NCBI GenBank assembly: GCA_046598345.1 | Contig: JBKJIT010000003.1 | Span: forward strand, 5,089-69,088 | Source: Minisyncoccia bacterium | Lineage (GTDB): Bacteria > Patescibacteriota > Minisyncoccia > Phycocordibacterales > UBA918 | Direction: 5' to 3' | Length of the DNA stretch: 64,000 nucleotides | In this document: one piece after another, positions 1 to 59,230 of the stretch | Position numbering within the stretch: position 1 is the stretch's first letter | Layout: each line of letters opens with the position of its first letter | The notes under the pieces: generated by a model | Databases searched by the model: none | Told to the model about the DNA's origin: nothing | What the model saw: the letters and a program-made list of their open reading frames with translations, nothing else | Made by a program: the position numbers and the translations under genes

Positions 1-2546
1 CCAGTAGAAAAGGGTCCAACACTCTGACAAATAGTTGCATTATTTGAGCCCCATGAAACTTGTACTAAATCTCCTGTCGTTATGTTTTTTGTCGATGCTG
101 CTCCACCATTATTGGTAATAGGACTTGCGCCCCCTACATTAGCAACTGTAATGCTTGCAGTGGGAGCGGCCGCACAGGCACTTCCATTCCAAGCAGAGCC
201 AGCAGTGCAAGATGCTGTTCCAGTTGCCGCATGGAGGAGTGTCGTGTTGTTATAGAGTGTAAACGCATTTGTTGCACCTGATCCGTAGGAAAGGTTTCTG
301 GAAGTTCCAGGATTTGAAGCTGCCAGGTTGAATAATCCTCCACCCTGATACACACGCGGAGTAGTTGCGTTTGAAGTCCAAGATACAGAGGTGGAGCAGT
401 TATTTGCACCGACTGCAATTGTACAATTGGGAACGGTAATCGTTCCCGTAGGGGCTGGAATACATGTAAACGTTCCTCCTTGAGCTGAGTTGCTCCAGTT
501 GCCATTTGCATGACGAGTGTGCATATACCAATAATATTGGGTATTTGGGTCTATTGTTGTTACCCGTGAAGTACCGGTGTAACTATCGAGACACAGCCCC
601 TCCGGTTCTGTTTTATTCGGAGAACATGCACTTGTCCAACTTTCTGCCGCTGGAGCAGGGGGACTTTTATAAAGACGCAGAAGTGATTGAGTGTATGTAC
701 TCGGAAGTGTCCAATTAAGTGTTGCTTGTGTCCCCGCTGCATTACAAGTTACGGCACCGGGTGTTGGAACAGGCGGAATATCGAAATAAATCACATTGCT
801 CGTTCCTACGGTCCCGTTAGTGCACTCAACCCGGTATTGAGCTATAGAAGTTACACCCGTGGGAAGCGGGTATTGTCTAGTACCTGGATATGGATAGGTT
901 CCAACGCTTGCATATGCGCCTGCATTCCACCTATACACCGTACACGATGTCGGGTTGTTAGTAGCACTCCAACCCAAAATTGCTGTTGCCCCGCTCTCAT
1001 TGTAGAAGGCACTTCGTATCCAATTGCCGGTCCCACCACTCTGTGTCGTGCCCGTAGCAGTAACGACTGGAGCAGGAGGAGGAGAGACTGTTCGAGACCA
1101 CGTCATGGTGTTGCATAGTATGTTGCTTACAGAGGCCGTATTGAGATACACATGTGTATTAAAATTTCCATATTCAGCATTCCCCGCTTTGTGATTCGCT
1201 AAGTTTATCGATCCTCGCCAGGTACCTCCTCCCATGTTTGTTCCTGGATACCAGACAAGGTCGTCCTGCCCCCCTGAATCTCCCCACGTTGGAAATGTTA
1301 CCGAGGTAACATTTGCACTCACCCCATACGCATAGGTGTATAACGTTCCTGTGGTGGCGGATGTATTAGAAGATTCCATTGCAACACTCGAACAAGAAGC
1401 TGCAACAGCACTGACCGTAACGGATTGCGCACCGGTAGACACACCGCTACCATTCCAGCACTCCAACGTGAAAGTCTTAGTTGCAGGAATAGCTTGCACT
1501 GAGCTTCCATTTACAACTTGCGAACCTGTCCATCCATTCGAAGCTGTGCAAGAAGTAGCACCACTCGTTGTCCACGTAAGGGTTGAGTTTCCATTTGCAG
1601 CAACAGATGTTGGGCTAGCGGAAAAATTGAGTGTTGGAGCCCCGGGACACGAAGGCGATGCCATGGTACTAGGCGTTGGTCCTGCATTTGCTGACGATCC
1701 TGCTGAGTTTGACGCTCTTACATAGTACGTATGACTCGAAAGTGGTGAAACAGCGTGAGTGTATGAAGTAGCAGCTCCAGTATAGATAATGTTACCAGCA
1801 CTTGTTCCGTCAGCCATGAGCGTGTAGCTCGTCGCACCCGAAACAGCATTCCACGATATATTAATGAAACCACCACAACCACCAGATTGAGATGCAACAA
1901 GATTTGTAGGGGTTGTGGGAGCGACAGCACAATTTACGCCTCCATTTGGCTGATACGGATTCCAACCAGCAGGAGCTGTTTGTACAGTTCCACTGCAATC
2001 AATATAGCAAGAATCACCGGGTTCAAGTTGGTTTATGTATCCATTGGCGGCATTGGGGCTCATTGATGTGCATGTCCACCACCAGCCCGGCTGTCCATAA
2101 GACGCACTACCTGCATTGTTTGTTCCCAAACCACCTGGCAAACAGGATGACCCCGTGGTTCCGCAAATTGCGTGTGCGTAAATATCCACCGCTTTAGTTG
2201 CTGTATTTACCGTATCAGTACATGAAACCTCTCGATTGGTATACCCGGTAATCGGTCCGATTCCGCTCACTGAGCTTACTGTAGGATACGAATATGCAGC
2301 AGCAGGAGCGTCATTAACAAACTTAACTCGACAACTAGTAGCACCTACTTGACCCGATGGGAACCAAGACAGGTTGATGTATGAGTTGTAAGGAACAGAA
2401 TGAGATGATGGACTAAAAAAGGTAGAGCCCGACACCCCAGTAGATACACTACTCACAGCGATCGCGTCTACGGGAAAAAAGAAAACCACAGCCACAAATC
2501 CAAGAAGGAGTACTTTTTGAAATAAATTTATAGAAAAAGTATTCAT
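1..2546 (-). CDS. Large secreted surface protein, 3' part (runs off the window start). Signal peptide MNTFSINLFQKVLLLGFVAVVFFFPVDA, S/T/G/A-rich with recurring Cys and Ig/FN3-like W-x-S/T repeat units.
   Basis: Hand translation of the minus strand from ATG 2546..2544 found no stops in the stretches checked (e.g. 1140-1184). The ORF track shows only short fragments here because the ORF has no in-window stop. Repeated motifs such as LTWTTSGATSCTAS, LNWTLPSTYTQ and VSWTSNATTP. Confidence 0.55.
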   Translation of the reverse strand, partial: MNTFSINLFQKVLLLGFVAVVFFFPVDAIAVSSVSTGVSGSTFFSPSSHSVPYNSYINLSWFPSGQVGATSCRVKFVNDAPAAAYSYPTVSSVSGIGPITGYTNREVSCTDTVNTATKAVDIYAHAICGTTGSSCLPGGLGTNNAGSASYGQPGWWWTCTSMSPNAANGYINQLEPGDSCYIDCSGTVQTAPAGWNPYQPNGGVNCAVAPTTPTNLVASQSGGCGGFINISWNAVSGATSYTLMADGTSAGNIIYTGAATSYTHAVSPLSSHTYYVRASNSAGSSANAGPTPSTMASPSCPGAPTLNFSASPTSVAANGNSTLTWTTSGATSCTASNGWTGSQVVNGSSVQAIPATKTFTLECWNGSGVSTGAQSVTVSAVAASCSSVAMESSNTSATTGTLYTYAYGVSANVTSVTFPTWGDSGGQDDLVWYPGTNMGGGTWRGSINLANHKAGNAEYGNFNTHVYLNTASVSNILCNTMTWSRTVSPPPAPVVTATGTTQSGGTGNWIRSAFYNESGATAILGWSATNNPTSCTVYRWNAGAYASVGTYPYPGTRQYPLPTGVTSIAQYRVECTNGTVGTSNVIYFDIPPVPTPGAVTCNAAGTQATLNWTLPSTYTQSLLRLYKSPPAPAAESWTSACSPNKTEPEGLCLDSYTGTSRVTTIDPNTQYYWYMHTRHANGNWSNSAQGGTFTCIPAPTGTITVPNCTIAVGANNCSTSVSWTSNATTPRVYQGGGLFNLAASNPGTSRNLSYGSGATNAFTLYNNTTLLHAATGTASCTAGSAWNGSACAAAPTASITVANVGGASPITNNGGAASTKNITTGDLVQVSWGSNNATICQSVGPFST

Positions 2547-3181
2547 GATGTCTGTAGAATAGTAAGGGTTTCCGCCACAGGGATTAACGCATCCCTCTTT
2601 TCGGGTGCGCGCACATCCAGAACAAAAAACCAACCGGAGTATTTCTCAAAATGAAAAATGACCAAATCGGCATTTTCTCCTATGTGTTCAAGCCCATTTA
2701 TACCAGGAATACTTAGAGTAAGTGGCCTAGTTCGATACGAAGGTCCCACGTATTCCTTGAGTGTTGTTCCAAAAAAGGCTTCCCACGCGGCTTCATGTGC
2801 GTCTTCCTCACCGTTATAGAAAGTCCTGAGAATGATTGAATCAGTTGTACTTGAGACTGCGATGACGCTGTCCTCATTATTCAACTGCTGAACATTCATT
2901 GTGGATTCTGGATATGTGAGAGTGTAGGAAATACCTTTTGTACCCTGTTTCGGCTTATCAAATGTCTTTCCAGTAAAAGTACTCATAGGCTCTGGCGCAG
3001 GAATCACTACGCTTTCAGATACTTCGTTTTGTTTATCTCTTTCGATGGCACCCACTGGCTCTGGTTGACTCTGCTTGTTTCCAAAAAAAAGAAAAAACGC
3101 ATATGCGAGGAGTAATGCAAGCACAACGCTACCCGAACACATGATTGCGTACCCAATAATTTTTTGTTTAGGGGTTGCCAT
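2543..3181 (-). CDS. Membrane-anchored hypothetical protein (N-terminal TM, extracytoplasmic domain)
   Basis: 212-aa ORF whose stop TGA (2545..2543) overlaps the ATG (2546..2544) of the downstream giant surface protein, an ATGA overlap. Hydrophobic N-terminus VVLALLLAYAFFLFF. Confidence 0.5.
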   Translation of the reverse strand: MATPKQKIIGYAIMCSGSVVLALLLAYAFFLFFGNKQSQPEPVGAIERDKQNEVSESVVIPAPEPMSTFTGKTFDKPKQGTKGISYTLTYPESTMNVQQLNNEDSVIAVSSTTDSIILRTFYNGEEDAHEAAWEAFFGTTLKEYVGPSYRTRPLTLSIPGINGLEHIGENADLVIFHFEKYSGWFFVLDVRAPEKRDALIPVAETLTILQTS

Positions 3182-3302
3182 AACAAACCGTGGACAATTC
3201 CAGAGGTATTACCCCTAATATTAGCATGTAGTCACGTCAGTAAATTCACTTTAGTTGAATTCTGTGACTATTTTATAGCGAAACCAGATAATACGGACGG
3301 CC

Positions 3303-3330
3303 TTGACAAAATACCCTATGATGGTATATA
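3303..3330 (+). promoter_or_regulatory. Near-consensus sigma70-type promoter TTGACA-N16-TATATA upstream of 3422 gene
   Basis: TTGACA at 3303-3308, 16-nt spacer, TATATA at 3325-3330. GGAG Shine-Dalgarno sits 8 nt before ATG 3422. Confidence 0.5.
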
Positions 3331-3421
3331 CTCCTTTTCGGTTGGTTTGGTCTTTTCAAAAAAACTTTCGCGGGTAAAACCGCACCCAATTCCTAGGGGG
3401 TAACCTGGGTGGAGATGTGAA

Positions 3422-3826
3422 ATGAAAAGCATGAAAAGCATCATTTTGGCGGCCACCTTGGCTGTTTTGTCGCTATTGTCCTTCGGGGCATCGGCGGAAA
3501 ACAATGGCATTTGTGAGACGCTGTACGCCGTTCGAGCATTCCCCGAGGGTAAGCGGCCAACGATTATTCAGGCATGCAAGCCCCTTCTGGTCGGCCAACG
3601 GTGGTCAATGATCACGACGTGCGGCGGCAACGGCTTTGCCATCAATGGCAACTTCCCTCCCTATGTGTATCACGGGATGGGCGGAACGACCGTCAGCTGC
3701 GTTCAGCTCGAAGTGGCCAAAGCTGAAGCAAACAGGCAAATCGATGCGACCCTGAAGGCCCTGACGAAGCTCGGCGGCGACGCCAGCTACTGGATGGCTA
3801 TCCAGGACGCACTCCCGGCGGAATAA
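3422..3826 (+). CDS. Small secreted protein (signal peptide, Cys-containing), unknown function; visibly GC-richer than the surrounding genome
   Basis: 134-aa ORF. N-terminal MKSMKSIILAATLAVLSLLSFGASA is a signal peptide. Codon usage rich in GGC/GCC/CTG/ACG. Own promoter and own terminator. Confidence 0.6.
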   Translation: MKSMKSIILAATLAVLSLLSFGASAENNGICETLYAVRAFPEGKRPTIIQACKPLLVGQRWSMITTCGGNGFAINGNFPPYVYHGMGGTTVSCVQLEVAKAEANRQIDATLKALTKLGGDASYWMAIQDALPAE

Positions 3827-3848
3827 CGGGCAGACGATCTGCCCTCCC

Positions 3849-3887
3849 ATGCGCAGGTATCCTACCAAGGGTCCTGCGCATTTTTTT
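3849..3887 (+). terminator. Rho-independent terminator (ATGCGCAGG...CCTGCGCAT + T7), preceded by second hairpin GGGCAGACGATCTGCCC at 3828-3844
   Basis: Inverted repeat followed by TTTTTTT at 3881-3887. Confidence 0.6.
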
Positions 3888-3914
3888 AACCACGCATATT
3901 CGAAGGAGAATTGC

Positions 3915-4331
3915 ATGAAAATTCGTTCAGTGTCCTTTGCAACGATGGTGAGTTTTCTCTCCATATTCACTTGTGGTGCTCAGACTGCTCCGCCCATTAC
4001 GCCACCAGGAAGTTCCACACCGACGGTGGAAGTGGTGGTAACAGTTCCCTGCAATCACTATACGTGGATTCGCTGGTCCTCGTCGGCAAACACACGGTAC
4101 TGTTACATGCAGCATGAAGGACTGATTGAACCTAACGGCAAAAAGTACGTAGGGCCAATACTCGCCTACACCGTGCGGTCAGTGACGTGCTTCAATGGAA
4201 CTGGAACTGGCTGGAGTGCCCACTACCCCATCGCGATCGTTCCCAGCACCATAAATCCGGACAACCCGCACGACTGTCGCATTCCTGTCCGCCTCAAAGA
4301 TGATCACGAGGAAGACGGGTCTGTCCCATAA
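3915..4331 (+). CDS. Small secreted protein (signal peptide), unknown function, GC-rich
   Basis: ATG 3915 preceded by GAAGGAGAA SD. The track ORF begins at 3849, but that would read through the terminator. Signal peptide MKIRSVSFATMVSFLSIFTCGAQTA. Several Cys. Confidence 0.55.
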   Translation: MKIRSVSFATMVSFLSIFTCGAQTAPPITPPGSSTPTVEVVVTVPCNHYTWIRWSSSANTRYCYMQHEGLIEPNGKKYVGPILAYTVRSVTCFNGTGTGWSAHYPIAIVPSTINPDNPHDCRIPVRLKDDHEEDGSVP

Positions 4332-4365
4332 AATACAGACCGTGGATTAACCTCTCTGACAATCG

Positions 4366-4407
4366 CCCGTCCCACTCGAAGTATGAGAGTGGGACGGGCT
4401 TTTTTTA
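4366..4407 (+). terminator. Rho-independent terminator CCCGTCCCACTCGAAGTATGAGAGTGGGACGGG + T7
   Basis: Perfect 12-bp stem and T-run. Confidence 0.65.
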
Positions 4408-4461
4408 TGTACATTTTTATAACGCTGGAGGAGAACATGCGTTCTGGTGTATCATGACTCT

Positions 4462-5028
4462 ATGATTGCGCGCCTTACGGGAGAAGTGGTTGATGCAAAG
4501 CTCACGCATATAGTGCTCAGCGTTGGTGGTGTGGGGTATCTTGTCGCTGTCCGTCTCACCTCAGCATTTGAAATAGGTGGCCTCGTGACTCTCCACACCC
4601 ATCTAGCGGTGCGCGAGACTGCCCTCGATCTGTACGGATTTCTGACGCAAGACGAACTCCGTATGTTTGAGCACCTTATTAAGCTTCCGAAGATTGGTCC
4701 AAAGTCCGCGATGCAGATTCTCTCCCAAGCGGAACTTACCCTGCTCCGGCAGGCAGTACGAGAAAACGACCCGACATACCTCTCGAAGATGTCGGGCATT
4801 GGAAAGAAGAGCGCCGAAAAAATTGTACTCGGCCTCAAAGACATTTTTGAAGGTGACGATTTTCTTATGAGTGAAACCCATGGCGGAAAAGACGCAGACG
4901 TTATTGATGCACTTATTGCGCTCGGGTACTCAGAACGTGACGCGCGTGCTGCGCTCCAGAAGCTTCCCGCGGAAATCACGGATACGAACGACCGTATAAA
5001 ACACGCACTCAAATTTGTAAGTTCTTAG
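4462..5028 (+). CDS. ruvA: Holliday junction DNA helicase subunit RuvA
   Basis: MIARLTGEVV... N-terminus, helix-hairpin-helix middle region, C-terminal LIALGYSERDARAAL motif. Alternative GTG start at 4447. Confidence 0.85.
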   Translation: MIARLTGEVVDAKLTHIVLSVGGVGYLVAVRLTSAFEIGGLVTLHTHLAVRETALDLYGFLTQDELRMFEHLIKLPKIGPKSAMQILSQAELTLLRQAVRENDPTYLSKMSGIGKKSAEKIVLGLKDIFEGDDFLMSETHGGKDADVIDALIALGYSERDARAALQKLPAEITDTNDRIKHALKFVSS

Positions 5029-5199
5029 CCTCAACTGAACACCCCTTAGTCTCTCTTTTTCTCTCTTTTATTTTTTCTATCCTTAAAATTTTTTTGTCCC
5101 CGTCTTCTGTTCCTGTCTTCTTCTGCTCATTTTTACTTTTTTAGAGTTGCCCCAAGCTAATCAAGCTAACAACGTAATTTGTGTATTTACTTAATTCCA

Positions 5200-5239
5200 A
5201 CATATACCATAAGGGCCGTACGGCCCTTATGGTATATGT
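5200..5239. repeat. Perfect 40-nt palindrome ACATATACCATAAGGGCC-GTAC-GGCCCTTATGGTATATGT (copy 1)
   Basis: Self-complementary by inspection. Near-identical copy at 5970-6019. Confidence 0.85.
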
Positions 5240-5364
5240 TGCTCAAAAAAAGTTGGGCGATACTCAATATGAATAAAAATACAGAATATAAGGTATAGAG
5301 TGTTAGGTGTTGGGTGTGAAATATCGAACACGGGGTATTGGATATGAAATACGAAATGTGGAAT

Positions 5365-5410
5365 GTCGGGTGTCGGGTGTCGGGTGTCGGGTGTCGGGTG
5401 TCGGGTGTCG
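5365..5410. repeat. Tandem heptamer repeat (GTCGGGT)x6.5, preceded by degenerate GT-rich copies from about 5290
   Basis: gtcgggtgtcgggtgtcgggtgtcgggtgtcgggtgtcgggtgtcg. Confidence 0.9.
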
Positions 5411-5968
5411 TCAAATCCTAAAATATTTCCGCAGATGCTTGTCGTTTTCAATGTAATCTGACGTAAGATAAAGCACATCTGAACTGAGTCCGAGGTGTGA
5501 TTTTAAAAGTAGAATAAAATCATCACACGCATACGGATACACCCATACACTTTTCTGAAGCATGTAAAATCCGTACAATTTCATACCTCGACGAAGCTCC
5601 TTTCTCACTTTCTCTTTCGTATTCGGTACGTCAAAAACAACAACTCTCCACCTCTCATCCCATTTCTTTTTCTCGGAAGATTCTATCCTCTGATGCCTGA
5701 GGGCAATTTCCCACTTACCCTTCTTTGTAACCTCAAGTACTTTCTCGCCGCCCTCATTGTGTGTCTGTTTAATAAGCCCTGATCTGAGCAGTGATTCTAT
5801 GTTCCTCTTGATAGATTGTCCGGGTGAATACTTCTTACGCTTAAAAGTTCCCCCCAGAAGTGAAAGTGCATTCGGTGCCACTACAGCGATAGTTACCACC
5901 CCGAGGGTACCAATAGTCATAAGAACCCCTTCTCCAATTTTGCCTAGTTTTTGTCGCGTTAGTGACAT
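5411..5968 (-). CDS. PaaX-like C-terminal domain protein with N-terminal TM helix and winged-helix-like segment (putative membrane-anchored regulator)
   Basis: Motif KKKWDERWRVVVFDVPNTKEKVRKELRRGMKLYGFYMLQKSVWVYP matches the PaaX_C / Cas2-like W-D-x-x-W...F-D-V-P...L-R...G-F...L-Q-x-S-V-W pattern. Hydrophobic stretch VLMTIGTLGVVTIAVVAPNALSLLGG. An alternative start at 5920 (MTIGTL) has a better SD (GGAGAAGGGG). Confidence 0.45.
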   Translation of the reverse strand: MSLTRQKLGKIGEGVLMTIGTLGVVTIAVVAPNALSLLGGTFKRKKYSPGQSIKRNIESLLRSGLIKQTHNEGGEKVLEVTKKGKWEIALRHQRIESSEKKKWDERWRVVVFDVPNTKEKVRKELRRGMKLYGFYMLQKSVWVYPYACDDFILLLKSHLGLSSDVLYLTSDYIENDKHLRKYFRI

Positions 5969-5969
5969 T

Positions 5970-6019
5970 ACCGTAAATATACCATAAGGGCCATACGGCT
6001 CTTATGGTATATTTACGGT
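5970..6019. repeat. Palindrome copy 2 (about 50 nt, 2 mismatches) sharing the core ATATACCATAAGGGCC..GGC.CTTATGGTATAT with 5200-5239
   Basis: accgtaaatataccataagggccatacggctcttatggtatatttacggt. Confidence 0.85.
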
Positions 6020-6040
6020 GTAGGGGTTATTTGGGTTATA

Positions 6041-6064
6041 GGGGTATAGGGGTATAGGGGTATA
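6041..6064. repeat. Tandem octamer repeat (GGGGTATA)x3 with degenerate copies from 6022
   Basis: ggggtataggggtataggggtata. Confidence 0.8.
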
Positions 6065-6207
6065 TGTCTATCTATACAGTGCGCTTTAATACTTTTTAAT
6101 AATTAAGGTGTTTTATGGAGAAAAATGTATGGGGAAAGAGCAATCCGCCAACCTCATTTAATTTGAGGCAAAGCGAAAAACCCGTATACTAAATTTAAGC
6201 TTTTCAT

Positions 6208-34291: not shown

Positions 34292-34702
34292 TTATTTAGT
34301 GTCGTTCATATTTAATTCAAGCTTGTGTGCGAGAGCTGCGAGATTTTGCTTTTGCATTGGAATATTCTCGGGAACCTCAACTGGCTCTTCACGCTTTGTC
34401 ACAATACTCTGCTCTTTTACCTTCCTCCAAAGATATAACTTGCTTCCACTAAAATAACTCACAAACGCCTCAAGAAACGATGAAAATGGACGATTATTGA
34501 CCTGGTGGAATGCAAGAAAACCTGCGAGGGAGGCAACGGGGATTGCGAATAGGAGGAATAGGAGGAATGGAAGCATAAAAAAGAGCACCACACAGAGCCC
34601 CACCCCACCCGCAACATACACAAACTGCTTCCAGGTAAGTGGGCCGACGATCTTGTCTTCAACGTCAATAAATTGAGGTACTTCAAAGCGCATACACCAC
34701 AT
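34292..34702 (-). CDS. VirB3/PrgI(TcpE)-like small 2-TM protein
   Basis: 136 aa, two adjacent TM helices (VYVAGGVGLCVVLFFMLPFLLFLLFAIPVASLAGFLAF), positioned just upstream of the VirB4-like gene. Confidence 0.45.
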   Translation of the reverse strand: MWCMRFEVPQFIDVEDKIVGPLTWKQFVYVAGGVGLCVVLFFMLPFLLFLLFAIPVASLAGFLAFHQVNNRPFSSFLEAFVSYFSGSKLYLWRKVKEQSIVTKREEPVEVPENIPMQKQNLAALAHKLELNMNDTK

Positions 34703-35281: not shown

Positions 35282-37489
35282 TTATTTTCCAAATTGAACT
35301 CCCAATGCAGAACTGAGCCAATTGTCTGCCGCGCTAAGGTAGGCGGCGTTAGGTAACGGAGGACCGCCCGCAGCTATTGCCGCGTTGTTTGCAGCGATAG
35401 CTGTTTCGAGTTGGGTCCTAATATGTGCCTGATCGACGGTATTTATTGTTGAGTCTTGAGCTATCTTAGCCAGAGCATTTACGGGAATTTCAGTGCTAAT
35501 CAGTTTCAATACTTCTGCGGGCATTTTTGCAATTTCTCCTGATTTTTGTTTAAGTATGTGATCCTTATCAAGTGTTGCTGGTGCCCCTGCTCTCATCGTA
35601 GCAATCGGAATGTTTTGAGCTAGCTGTTTCAGTGCATCTTCGCGTTTTTTAGAAAGATTACCAAACTCAGTTTTTGTAAACTTTTTCTTTAGATCATCCA
35701 TTTGCGAAGAGGTTAGACGTGCTGCATATTCAGGATCCTCAAGGAACTTTGCTCCAAGCCATTCAAGGTGCTCTGCACTTGCTTTCGCGAGAGAATCACG
35801 ATCTGCTTCGTATATCGCTTTAATTGCATCAGATTTCTTACCTTTAATTTTATTTTTTTCTTCCTCACTGAGTTCAGTGCTCTTGTCGAGTCCCTCAATT
35901 TGGCTTGTAGACAAGTCAGCCGCAATTGCTTCTCGCTCTTCTTGGCTGAGTCCCTCAAGGATCTTTGTGGTGGCGTCTGCAACTGCTCGCTCTTTTTTAA
36001 TACGAGCTACATCCCCAGCACTCCCCAGTGGCGCAGCTACACCCCCTGCGATAGCATCTTTGAGTTTTGCTTTTTCGCCACTCACCGTTCGCTCATTTTT
36101 AATCTCCTTTTTTTCCTTTTTTGCTTCTACACGTGACTGGGAGCTACCAAACTTAGCTTCTGCTCCCGCATGTGCAGCACCATACACTCCCGTTCCTCTC
36201 ATAAGACCCGCAGCTCGCTGTTGCCATTTATTATCGCTTTTACGCATATCTTCTTGTTTGTGTGCAATTGCATAGCCCAATCGTCCCACAGTGTTTCTCC
36301 CGGCAAATCCTTGAATACCCCCACGGATTTTGTTTGACCAGTCCTTTCCAAGTGACATTGCCTTGTCGGCACCCTTGATGCCAAATTCCTGTGCAATTTT
36401 GAGAGAAAAGATCAAGAACATGATGCTGATAATAAAAAGTAAGACGACATCAAACATTCCTGCGGAAGCAGCGGGGTTTCCTGCAAGTTGACCACTTCCT
36501 GAAAGGGCATCGGAAAGAGATTTCACTGGGTTTCCTTTTGCATCCAAATAATTTAGTGATTTGAACGCCCCATCAAGAATGTGAATAGAAATAAGAAGCA
36601 AAAATATGTATGCAGGTGCAAAGAAAGAGTAACTAATCAGTTTCGAAATAAGATCGTCCGCGTACTTTTTAGTTTGGGGAAATACTCTGGCCGCAAAAAT
36701 AATTGGGGAAAACACCATAATCAGTACAAGCGCAACGAAGCGGACAATGAGGAGAATGCCTCCTGCTGCAAGGACAAACCCCGCGATCATGAGAAACACT
36801 GCTCCCATCACAAAGAAGGCAAAACTCCCGCCGCCGGTGAGCTTGGCCGTTGCCTCTGGCTCCATGGTATTCCAGAAGGTTTGAATCCCCATAAGGCTTG
36901 CAAATTTTTCTGATATGTTTTTGTTGGTTGATCCCTTCAGCATGGTGGTGTAGGTCTCCACAGCAATGTAGTTTGAAACATCGATGACCACTTTTGTGAA
37001 AAAGAGACTGAAGTTAATGAGGAGAGCACCGATGATGATCGCGGCAAGCGTGCGTTTCACGTCAGCACTTTCTGAATCAAGGATGGTCCTGATACCCAAG
37101 TAAATAAATCCAAAGATAAAGGCAAGGTTCGCAAGGTCACGAATAGTAGTCCAGGCTGAATTAATAGCAACACCAAGATCCCCCTTCACTAATGCACCTA
37201 ACCCAAGCACCAACTTATCAATCGAAACTTCAAGAATCATTCCCCCCACCCACGTAGCCCGAGAGGCAACATAGAGAATCATGTTTCCGATTGTGTTTCC
37301 CATCATTGAGAGGATGTCCACTCCTCCTTGGGCTGCTGCTCCTCCTGCCACGGCAGCGGGGGGTGCAACCTCACCGGCCGCAAAAACAGTGTGTACTTCC
37401 AGAAAAAGTGCTGAAAACACAAATACGCAAGATAAAATTCCTAGAAGAATTTTTTGAATTTTTGTGTTGTGAGTGTTAACGGCAACCAT
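35282..37489 (-). CDS. VirB6/TrbL-like polytopic membrane protein with long C-terminal hydrophilic extension
   Basis: Signal/TM N-terminus, at least 6 TM helices in the first 400 aa, then a charged coiled region (K/E/A-rich). Confidence 0.55.
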   Translation of the reverse strand: MVAVNTHNTKIQKILLGILSCVFVFSALFLEVHTVFAAGEVAPPAAVAGGAAAQGGVDILSMMGNTIGNMILYVASRATWVGGMILEVSIDKLVLGLGALVKGDLGVAINSAWTTIRDLANLAFIFGFIYLGIRTILDSESADVKRTLAAIIIGALLINFSLFFTKVVIDVSNYIAVETYTTMLKGSTNKNISEKFASLMGIQTFWNTMEPEATAKLTGGGSFAFFVMGAVFLMIAGFVLAAGGILLIVRFVALVLIMVFSPIIFAARVFPQTKKYADDLISKLISYSFFAPAYIFLLLISIHILDGAFKSLNYLDAKGNPVKSLSDALSGSGQLAGNPAASAGMFDVVLLFIISIMFLIFSLKIAQEFGIKGADKAMSLGKDWSNKIRGGIQGFAGRNTVGRLGYAIAHKQEDMRKSDNKWQQRAAGLMRGTGVYGAAHAGAEAKFGSSQSRVEAKKEKKEIKNERTVSGEKAKLKDAIAGGVAAPLGSAGDVARIKKERAVADATTKILEGLSQEEREAIAADLSTSQIEGLDKSTELSEEEKNKIKGKKSDAIKAIYEADRDSLAKASAEHLEWLGAKFLEDPEYAARLTSSQMDDLKKKFTKTEFGNLSKKREDALKQLAQNIPIATMRAGAPATLDKDHILKQKSGEIAKMPAEVLKLISTEIPVNALAKIAQDSTINTVDQAHIRTQLETAIAANNAAIAAGGPPLPNAAYLSAADNWLSSALGVQFGK

Positions 37490-58171: not shown

Positions 58172-58338
58172 CCGTCTACTCTACTATATATGCTGTCATT
58201 TGTTTAAAAACGTTACAGATGTGTGAGGGATTCATGAAACGTGACATTGAGCCATATCTACGGCATAATCTCTCCCGTTCCCGAGGCAAGTTTGCTTAGG
58301 GATAGGATTGTTCTTTACAATAACTAAAGGGATTGACC

Positions 58339-58722
58339 ATGCGAGTGGTTGTCATTGTAGTTCTGTTTTTCTTTGTTTCGTTCGCGGAAGCAGCCCGTGC
58401 GGAGACGTACTTTGTTTCACGAACATCAGATATGTATCCGGTATTGCTAAACAAGCCGCCGAAGGGAAAAATCGGCAGGAACCTCTATGAGCGTGCACGT
58501 AGCACATTGTTGAGTGCAGGTTTCGAGGAAGTTTCAGAGCGACCGCACAATTTCGAGAATCAAGCTTGCGAATTGGTACCGTACAGCTCACGGATGTACA
58601 TAGCGTGTGTGCGAGCGACTGAGGAACCGTTTTGCGCATTTTTGCCAGATCAGATTCATGTGAACGCCATCGTTCACATGATGAAGACATTTCGTCGGGC
58701 CTGTCCGACACGGATTATCTGA
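58339..58722 (+). CDS. Small secreted Cys-containing protein
   Basis: Signal peptide MRVVVIVVLFFFVSFAEAARA; AAGGG SD. Confidence 0.45.
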   Translation: MRVVVIVVLFFFVSFAEAARAETYFVSRTSDMYPVLLNKPPKGKIGRNLYERARSTLLSAGFEEVSERPHNFENQACELVPYSSRMYIACVRATEEPFCAFLPDQIHVNAIVHMMKTFRRACPTRII

Positions 58723-58731
58723 GGAGATGAC

Positions 58732-59184
58732 ATGCAAGAATTAGAAGCCGAGGTAATTCGGGAAGAAGACCGGAGCAGTTTCATTATGACCCTTGTGGTG
58801 GCCGTTCCGCTAGTGGTTGTGTCTGCGCTAATGCTGAACATCGGACAGAGGTCAGTCTTGGAGTTCAAGATCGGCGGAGTGCCCTACGTTGTGGACGCAA
58901 CAAGAAACACGGAGGTGTTCAAATCCTTGCTAAAGCAGGGAGGAGCGCGCATTCCTGCCACAAAGCATGATGACAACCCGAATGCCTACTTCTGTGTCGT
59001 GGAACCAGCGCAAATTGGGGTCGTTTCGTACGTGTACCAGGCGTGCGGAAAAATGGGTGCGGAAAAAGGAGAAGTCTTTGGGTGCAATGTAGACTCACTG
59101 GATGCCGCACAGAGCATTCTCGAATACATTCGATACTCGAAGAAGTTCACTTGTTCATTGGAGGGAGGAAGAAGGCCAGTGTAA
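58732..59184 (+). CDS. Small membrane-anchored protein
   Basis: TM IMTLVVAVPLVVVSALML; 4 Cys. Confidence 0.45.
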   Translation: MQELEAEVIREEDRSSFIMTLVVAVPLVVVSALMLNIGQRSVLEFKIGGVPYVVDATRNTEVFKSLLKQGGARIPATKHDDNPNAYFCVVEPAQIGVVSYVYQACGKMGAEKGEVFGCNVDSLDAAQSILEYIRYSKKFTCSLEGGRRPV

Positions 59185-59197
59185 TTGCTGGGCAAAT

Positions 59198-59230
59198 GGG
59201 GGATGTGCGCAGGCACTCCCCCGTTTTTTT
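59198..59230 (+). terminator. Terminator GGGGGATGTGCGCAGGCACTCCCCC + T7
   Basis: Hairpin + T-run. Confidence 0.65.

Follow-up and report, generated by a model that had tools for sequence, protein, structure and literature searches.

In Escherichia coli, most ORFans, that is, genes with no homologue outside their own genome, have been inferred to be imports whose function is unknown (PMC13012023). Genomes of the candidate phyla radiation (CPR), or Patescibacteria, commonly encode small secreted proteins; in a closed Gracilibacteria genome, 66 proteins carry signal peptides, 24 of them shorter than 300 amino acids (aa) (PMC6851277). Here, we describe two adjacent small open reading frames (ORFs), ORF1 and ORF2, that share features with both. 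They lie near the left end of a 64,000-nucleotide stretch of contig JBKJIT010000003.1 (the window), part of a metagenome-assembled genome (MAG) of an uncultured, ultrasmall CPR bacterium. The reading that we favour, and to which we give about an even chance of being correct, is that both are real, lineage-specific genes for Sec-exported and probably disulfide-bonded proteins, served by one promoter and a leaky terminator; that they belong to the surface or extracellular repertoire of the organism; and that ORF1 was probably imported.

Like the ORFans and small acquired islets of other bacteria, the pair is short and without homologues beyond one genome, the codons of ORF1 are atypical, and the junction that it occupies is filled differently in relatives. 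Unlike them, ORF1 is GC-richer than its host and stands in no phage or mobile-element context. The classical ORFans of Daubin and Ochman (2004) are reportedly AT-richer than their host, as a rule. With the small secreted proteins of the CPR, the pair has in common a Sec-type signal, a length below 300 aa, resistance to annotation and a position beside giant surface proteins, and a second such pair is found at 58333–59184. That category is descriptive, however, rather than a homologous family, and ORF1, ORF2 and the second pair are mutually dissimilar. Classical genomic islands share the atypical GC content and may also share the lack of counterparts at a conserved junction in relatives, the nearest relative compared being distant, but the present locus is only about 1.2 kb long and has no integrase or transposase, the tRNA-Lys gene is 5 kb away, and the direct repeat around it, matching at 11 of 12 positions, is marginal. 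Overall, this is a fairly ordinary lineage-specific islet of exported-protein orphans: the sequences of ORF1 and ORF2 are new, while the kind of feature is already known.

Base Composition and Codon Usage

An earlier reading of the window, made from the sequence only, had described a GC-rich two-gene island. Windowed GC and codon usage, calculated here, bear this out for ORF1 but only mildly for ORF2. The mean GC content of the window is 0.4675, and the maximum of the entire 64 kb falls within ORF1, at 3451–3471, in both sliding windows (0.593 in 405-bp windows and 0.549 in 910-bp windows; z about 2.9). The rise, at about 3420, is abrupt. ORF1 has a GC content of 0.568, and its GC at third codon positions (GC3), 0.704, is the highest of 59 ORFs (mean 0.462, standard deviation 0.067, z 3.6) and exceeds the GC3 of every one of 528 host-gene segments of matched length (maximum 0.619). 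The synonymous codon choice of ORF1 is foreign to the host (z −3.2). Leucine is encoded by TTG or CTG in 8 of 13 cases, compared with 13% in the host, where CTT and CTC make up 75%; 9 of 13 glycines are GGC, compared with 17%. ORF2 is only mildly GC-rich (GC 0.525; GC3 0.56, z 1.5), with synonymous codons chosen much as in the host (z −1.0). What stands out in composition is ORF1 rather than a uniform two-gene block. Atypical composition and codon usage, as expected of a genomic island, are thus found in ORF1; ORF2 does not show them in its synonymous usage, and the dinucleotides of the segment are ordinary.

Translation Initiation

Host genes are poor in Shine-Dalgarno (SD) sites. An SD core was found at 9 of 57 host starts, compared with 11% of random windows, and the energy of the duplex with CACCUCCUUA, taken as a canonical anti-SD sequence, averaged −1.3 kcal/mol at host genes, against −2.5 kcal/mol in random sequence. 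Among the 36 ORFs that start with ATG, a −10 box (at least 5/6) ends exactly 7–8 nt before the ATG in seven and at −14 to −5 in nine, compared with a background of 2.7%. This suggests that leaderless mRNAs are widespread in this CPR genome. Under the same assumption about the anti-SD sequence, ORF2 (−8.8 kcal/mol) and ORF1 (GGAG, −6.9 kcal/mol) have the second and third strongest SD duplexes of the 36 ATG-start genes. Such strength in both ORFs, together with the long leader of ORF1, fits import from an SD-using organism into an SD-poor host. Initiation style, SD-led or leaderless, could serve as an additional marker of foreign genes in SD-poor genomes.

Export and Expression Signals

The N-terminus of ORF1 consists of MKSMKS, the hydrophobic stretch IILAATLAVLSLLSF and GASA↓E, with a highest 15-residue Kyte–Doolittle hydropathy of 2.54, whereas that of ORF2 consists of MKIR, SVSFATMVSFLSIF and TCGA↓Q, with a highest value of 1.83. 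A rule-based check of charge, h-region and small residues at −3 and −1 found both to have the features of Sec signal peptides cleaved by signal peptidase I, and each mature part contains four cysteines, in agreement with the signal peptides and several cysteines noted earlier. No further transmembrane segment is present in either mature part (at most 0.7 on the Kyte–Doolittle scale over 19 residues), and neither N-terminus has the class III signal of type IV pilins and pseudopilins (G↓F/M-x-x-x-E followed by a hydrophobic helix). The signals therefore support export of both proteins. Mature ORF1 is predicted to be a 109-aa protein of 11.7 kDa with a pI of 6.9. The coding sequence of ORF1 opens with an exact 9-bp tandem duplication, ATGAAAAGC ATGAAAAGC, at 3422–3439, which gives MKS-MKS and two in-frame ATGs.

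A canonical lipobox has the form [LVI][ASTVI][GAS]-C (the PROSITE PS51257/DOLOP rule). As in Gram-positive-type lipoproteins, a cysteine ends the hydrophobic N-terminus of ORF2 and is followed by a linker rich in proline, threonine and serine and by a globular domain. Unlike in those proteins, the residues before Cys20 are I-F-T, with Phe at −2 and Thr at −1, so that ORF2 fails the canonical rule; it may carry a relaxed CPR lipobox, and signal peptidase I could equally well cut after CGA. The domain of about 100 residues is predicted to be all-beta. One segment of it, RYCYMQHEGLIEP, resembles the immunoglobulin (Ig) C1 motif of the MHC-I alpha3 domain; we dismissed this as chance, with a PDB E-value of 0.18 and a cysteine spacing that does not suit an Ig domain.

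The positions of the expression signals are listed in Table 1. The near-consensus TTGACA-N16-TATATA promoter ascribed to ORF1 is present, together with an alternative spacing to TATACT that matches at 11 of 12 positions, and it is one of only four sites in the window that reach at least 11/12. Transcription would start from it and produce a leader that neither matches Rfam (no hit at E ≤ 1) nor folds significantly (z −0.7); a riboswitch or leader RNA in the 82-nt 5′ untranslated region was rejected on these grounds. The tandem double hairpin described after ORF1 is also present, with a fold of −33.9 kcal/mol (z −6.9) that none of 200 shuffles equalled. It has the GC-rich stem-loop, the T-run and the stability beyond shuffled sequence that characterize rho-independent terminators. 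Terminators of this kind are widespread in the host, and those of ORF1 and ORF2 are strong, yet native in style.

The GAAGGAG site proposed for ORF2 was found as described. The claim that each gene has a strong promoter and terminator of its own held for both terminators and for the promoter of ORF1, but not for an ORF2 promoter, as no promoter-like site of at least 9/12 was found for it. Since ORF2 lacks a promoter and its ATG lies only 26 nt after the T-run of ORF1, it is most simply expressed by read-through, and the double hairpin would be a leaky terminator or attenuator ahead of it. The terminator after ORF2 (−32.9 kcal/mol, z −5.2) is real, but its perfect stem has 13 bp, not 12 as first stated.

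Homologues and Structure Predictions

We searched a collection of about 15 billion proteins, by a word-indexed search of 5.8 billion clusters and by a HMMER scan of 1.84 billion representatives, as well as JGI metagenomes, IMG/VR, plasmids, phages, Pfam, NCBIfam, PHROGs, PADLOC, PDB and Rfam. With ORF1 the word-indexed search returned no match, and with ORF2 it returned only that protein itself. The exhaustive HMMER scan with mature ORF1 yielded the 49-aa fragment of ORF1 and, besides it, three proteins of translated tandem repeats. These three, P0002 (5253 aa, 26 stretches), P0004 and P0005, were rejected as artefacts in which 6–26 identical weak matches had been summed; the single units score 8–12 bits, with E > 1e4. 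No match was found for ORF1 in the JGI metagenomes, for either ORF in IMG/VR, or in plasmids (DNA and protein) and phages (DNA only). In Pfam, NCBIfam, PHROGs and PADLOC there was nothing at E ≤ 0.1 beyond signal-peptide noise, and the best E-values in the PDB sequence search were 0.12 and 0.18. No homologue, in unrelated phyla or elsewhere, was thus found in these collections. Both ORFs are ORFans in the sense given above, the HMMER scan having covered ORF1. Nothing else in the window is similar to either of them. They are also not paralogues, as they lack mutual similarity, and neither has a usable structural match.

The Locus in Relatives

RuvA of the host, encoded downstream of the pair, is at most 78% identical to RuvA of MAGs labelled Kaiserbacteria, Paceibacterota or “Saccharibacteria”, and the organism resembles Kaiserbacteria/Paceibacteria within the CPR. 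No strain within 90% identity was found among the 15 billion proteins, where each of the flanking proteins, the Mur ligase among them, is a singleton at 90%. The closest sampled relative is 78% identical in RuvA and 84% in MurE.

We compared 126 ruvA loci of relatives, from 48 genomes and 78 metagenome contigs. The order ruvA-murE-trmH is conserved across them, with a median gap between ruvA and murE of about 76 bp in 113 loci. The region upstream of ruvA, in contrast, is variable in all relatives: in 7 of the 15 close relatives inspected, an ORF of 527–1841 aa with a signal peptide abuts ruvA on the opposite strand. The junction upstream of ruvA is thus found in relatives without ORF1. None of the 126 loci holds the pair, the closest relative in this comparison being the distant one named above, and nothing similar to ORF1, ORF2 or the 212-aa gene upstream of them was detected even at E < 1 (tblastn, phmmer) or at the DNA level (blastn). 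Close homologues at the syntenic position in sister genomes, which would have told against acquisition, are accordingly missing from these loci, but the nearest sister is not a close one.

The pair occupies the divergent gap between the ruvA-murE-trmH block and a variable surface-protein operon. The 212-aa orphan and the cysteine-rich protein of more than 848 aa upstream form an operon-like pair. The larger protein has partial matches to the giant ruvA-adjacent proteins of relatives (about 40% identity over roughly 200 aa), and appears to be a fast-evolving surface protein.

Table 1. Features of the ORF1–ORF2 locus, in window coordinates.
Feature	Position	Strand	Remarks
Secreted Cys-rich protein, >848 aa	1–2546	−	Runs off the window edge; one GBS Bsp-like repeat
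212-aa orphan gene	2543–3181	−	N-terminal membrane anchor; divergent from ORF1; GC 0.43; sole database match is itself
Direct repeat (11/12) bracketing ORF1 and ORF2	3183–3194 (ACAAACCGTGGA), 4335–4346 (ACAGACCGTGGA)	+	Chance expectation about 0.06 (estimate, two intergenic stretches)
Imperfect inverted repeat TAGTCAC...GTGACTA	3229–3270		Arms 3229–3235/3264–3270, 28 nt apart; inner arms AATTCA/TGAATT
Putative promoter of ORF1, sigma-70-type	3303–3332	+	TTGACA 3303–3308, then N18-TATACT (11/12) or N16-TATATA preceded by TGg
Public gene call, 64-aa antisense ORF	3316–3510	−	Overlies ORF1 promoter and signal peptide
Putative 5′ leader of ORF1, ~82 nt	3339–3421	+	GGAG at 3411–3414
ORF1, 134-aa preprotein	3422–3826	+	Predicted signal peptide, residues 1–25 (3422–3496); cleavage ASA↓ENNG
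Public gene call, 49-aa C-terminal fragment of ORF1	3677–3826	+	Replaces full-length ORF1
Hairpin and intrinsic terminator of ORF1	3828–3888	+	Hairpin 3828–3844; stem 3849–3881; T7 3882–3888; begins 2 nt past ORF1 stop
Public gene call, 160-aa form of ORF2	3849–4331	+	Start within terminator hairpin
SD site of ORF2, GAAGGAG	3902–3908	+	6 nt upstream of ATG 3915
ORF2, 138-aa preprotein	3915–4331	+	Hydrophobic N-terminus ending IFTCGA↓QT; Pro/Thr-rich linker; ~100-aa domain with 4 Cys
Intrinsic terminator of ORF2	4365–4406	+	Perfect 13-bp stem 4365–4399, 9-nt loop, then T7

Proposed Expression, Role and Origin

We propose that a transcript with a leader of about 82 nt starts from the promoter at 3303–3332. 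ORF1 would be translated from GGAG, exported by the Sec pathway and cleaved after Ala25, yielding the 11.7-kDa protein with its four cysteines. Most transcripts would end at the terminator at 3849–3888, and those that read through would carry ORF2 with its strong AAGGAG; with this layout of promoter and leaky terminator, much more ORF1 than ORF2 is to be expected. ORF2 would also be exported, followed by cleavage after CGA22 or, with lower probability, by lipid anchoring at Cys20, and the Pro/Thr-rich linker would hold out the all-beta four-cysteine domain. Transcription would stop at 4365–4406.

Most likely, the two proteins are extracellular or cell-surface parts of a variable envelope or host-contact repertoire, rather than enzymes or recognizable toxins. 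If they are real and expressed, they are two exported proteins of previously unseen sequence from a barely sampled CPR lineage, and attachment of episymbionts to their hosts is most likely mediated by surface proteins of this lineage-specific kind.

ORF1 probably came by import from a GC-richer source not yet sampled, and would retain the codon usage and SD-led signals of its donor in a host with mostly leaderless, SD-less mRNAs. Acquisition is supported by its outlying codons and GC3, by an SD site and long leader in an SD-poor host, by its absence from the 126 loci, and by the existence of the junction in relatives that lack it. The earlier description of the segment as recently acquired DNA therefore finds support in ORF1, but has against it the lack of a donor and of mobility genes and the host-like dinucleotides.

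Several findings weigh against our reading. No donor or homologue of ORF1 turned up in any collection searched, and, with no strain closer than 90%, it is composition that speaks for “recent”. Normalised for GC, the dinucleotides of the segment resemble those of the host (z 0–0.4), its promoter and terminators are of a kind usual in the host, and the host-like synonymous usage of ORF2 means that one shared origin of the two ORFs is not required. The flanking genes tested (both upstream genes as far as the left edge and, downstream, the main ORFs up to 14.7 kb) lack integrase and transposase Pfam domains, and no tRNA gene is adjacent, the only one (tRNA-Lys, 9356) being 5 kb off across core genes. 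Of the features that mark genomic islands, mobility genes and tRNA or att linkage were thus not seen there, and the flanking direct repeat is marginal. The SD site of ORF1 is a mere 4-mer core, with an 8–11% chance of occurring at random, and the canonical anti-SD sequence was assumed, as the 3′ end of the organism's 16S rRNA lies outside the window. Scores from a codon model trained on 35 host genes are near zero for ORF1 (0.019) and ORF2 (0.011), compared with 0.225 ± 0.058 for chunks of host genes (minimum 0.056), and ORF1 was never called whole in the public gene calls. Neither ORF has homologues whose conservation or dN/dS would speak for its translation. Finally, the single-sequence AlphaFold2 models are of low confidence, with a predicted local distance difference test (pLDDT) score of 37 for ORF1 and of 57, with 7 strands, for ORF2.

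Alternative Explanations

The explanation that fares best after ours, although we consider it unlikely, is that there was no transfer, and that the two ORFs and the 212-aa orphan are resident surface genes, born de novo or too diverged to be recognized, in a hypervariable locus, the GC content of ORF1 being a local peculiarity. Three adjacent orphans (GC 0.43, 0.57 and 0.53) beside a fast-evolving giant surface protein that relatives match only in part would fit such an origin, as would the host-like codons of ORF2, the host-like dinucleotides, promoter and terminators, and the lack of mobility genes in the flanking genes tested; the distance to the nearest relative also leaves ample time for divergence. 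However, the GC3 of ORF1 and its leucine and glycine codons are far beyond the host range, and the mutation bias of the host would not yield them. Both ORFs have SD sites in an SD-depleted genome and no nucleotide or protein similarity to resident sequences or to those of relatives, and most orphan genes in E. coli were inferred to be imports, not inventions (PMC13012023).

At the other extreme, ORF1, possibly together with ORF2 and the SD-bearing stretch upstream of ruvA, may have been imported very recently, the donor being a GC-richer organism and conceivably the very cell on which the episymbiont lives. We regard this as rather improbable; if true, ORF1 would be a new secreted factor for interaction with the host, and its composition would hint at what the donor or host is.

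We find it just as improbable that one or both ORFs are spurious, with ORF1 an open frame that arose by chance in a GC-rich insert, non-coding or decayed, and the promoter and terminator serving some non-coding RNA, or nothing. Full-length ORF1 was rejected by the gene caller, the score under the host model is about 0, homologues are missing, and a 121-aa antisense ORF at 3605–3970 shows how easily long open frames arise in this GC-rich stretch; a chance open frame of 134 codons at 57% GC is estimated at about 0.7% per frame. Nevertheless, the proposed frame is the best of the six for both ORFs under the codon model described above, and the signals are placed as genes would have them. ORF1 has a textbook signal peptide with ASA↓E, GGAG 7 nt before its ATG and a terminator that begins right after its stop codon; in ORF2, AAGGAG lies 6 nt before the start, and the hydrophobic N-terminus is followed by a Pro/Thr linker; and the number of cysteines in each mature part is even. 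The absence of an Rfam match and the insignificant fold of the leader also argue against a non-coding RNA. Public calls lack full-length ORF1 because its codon score under the host model is near zero, and both genes were missed or mis-started because of their atypical composition. We consider the public calls at this locus probably wrong, including the 160-aa form of ORF2 from ATG 3849, probably a mis-call that starts inside the ORF1 terminator. The full-length sequence of ORF1 is not in the 15-billion-protein collection.

It is very unlikely that the pair is a toxin or bacteriocin, or an effector module of a secretion system directed at competitors or the host cell. The sequence-only reading had proposed exported effectors or toxin-like peptides; export was upheld, but neither ORF matches a toxin, bacteriocin, immunity or defence family in Pfam, NCBIfam, PHROGs, PADLOC or PDB, and neither has a usable structural match. 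Small, exported, cysteine-containing and lineage-specific proteins with a strong promoter on ORF1 are what such a module might look like, and there is a type IV secretion gene about 30 kb away (34292–34702). On the other hand, both proteins carry Sec signals, so that neither looks like a cytoplasmic immunity partner, and no processing, transport or immunity gene is found nearby.

An assembly chimera, in which a GC-rich piece from another organism of the metagenome was joined by mis-assembly, might be suspected from the abrupt GC rise at about 3420 and the MAG source, but is hardly credible, as a Logan assembly made independently from SRR31159418 matches the window at 100% identity over 166–4938 and spans both junctions of the pair, the promoter, terminators and dinucleotides are host-style, and the composition of ORF2 is intermediate.

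Neighbouring Features

Upstream of the pair, the inverted repeat that was placed at about 3226–3268 with a 26-nt spacer exists, at slightly different coordinates and with a spacer of 28 nt. Its fold is marginal (z −1.9 on either strand; 9 of 200 shuffles were as good), and inverted repeats with 7-nt arms are common here (15 pairs in 1.4 kb). We therefore rejected it as a significant structure; it is possibly an operator, or due to chance. The direct repeat that brackets the pair is possibly an insertion scar, though marginally above chance.

Downstream, ruvA is likely to start at ATG 4462, which gives MIARLTGEVV, as in relatives; the longest-ORF start, GTG 4447, is probably wrong. At 4428–4461 there is a GGAGGAG (4428–4434) followed by a mini-ORF of six codons (ATG 4438, TGA 4456–4458) that ends 3 nt before ATG 4462. 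The mini-ORF could serve in translational coupling to ruvA, or be a leftover of the island.

Between ruvA and the Mur ligase gene, the window contains a 1.18-kb insertion (5029–6207) with a 185-aa PaaX_M/Cas2-like gene on the minus strand (5411–5968; PF20803, E 5e-20). The gene is flanked by two copies of a palindrome of about 36 nt, ATATACCATAAGGGCCGTACGGCCCTTATGGTATAT, at about 5202–5237 and 5977–6012, where 0 matches are expected by chance, and by simple repeats, (GGTGTCG)n at 5366–5410 and (GGGGTATA)n at about 6036–6066. The palindrome is in none of the 127 loci fetched. The insertion looks like a cassette, or the palindromes like an operator pair.

The type IV secretion gene at 34292–34702, on the minus strand, is of the PrgI family (VirB3-like; PF12666, E 8e-10) and adjoins a 735-aa ORF (35282–37489), which suggests a cluster resembling a type IV secretion system about 30 kb from the ORF1–ORF2 pair. 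The second pair of small cysteine-containing proteins, at 58333–59184 on the plus strand, matches nothing in Pfam and is not similar to ORF1 or ORF2. Its first member has a signal peptide, MRVVVIVVLFFFVSFAEA↓, and its second a signal-anchor-like segment and a strong SD site (−9.2 kcal/mol). The pair is followed by a strong hairpin and T-run at around 59180–59224 (−29 kcal/mol).

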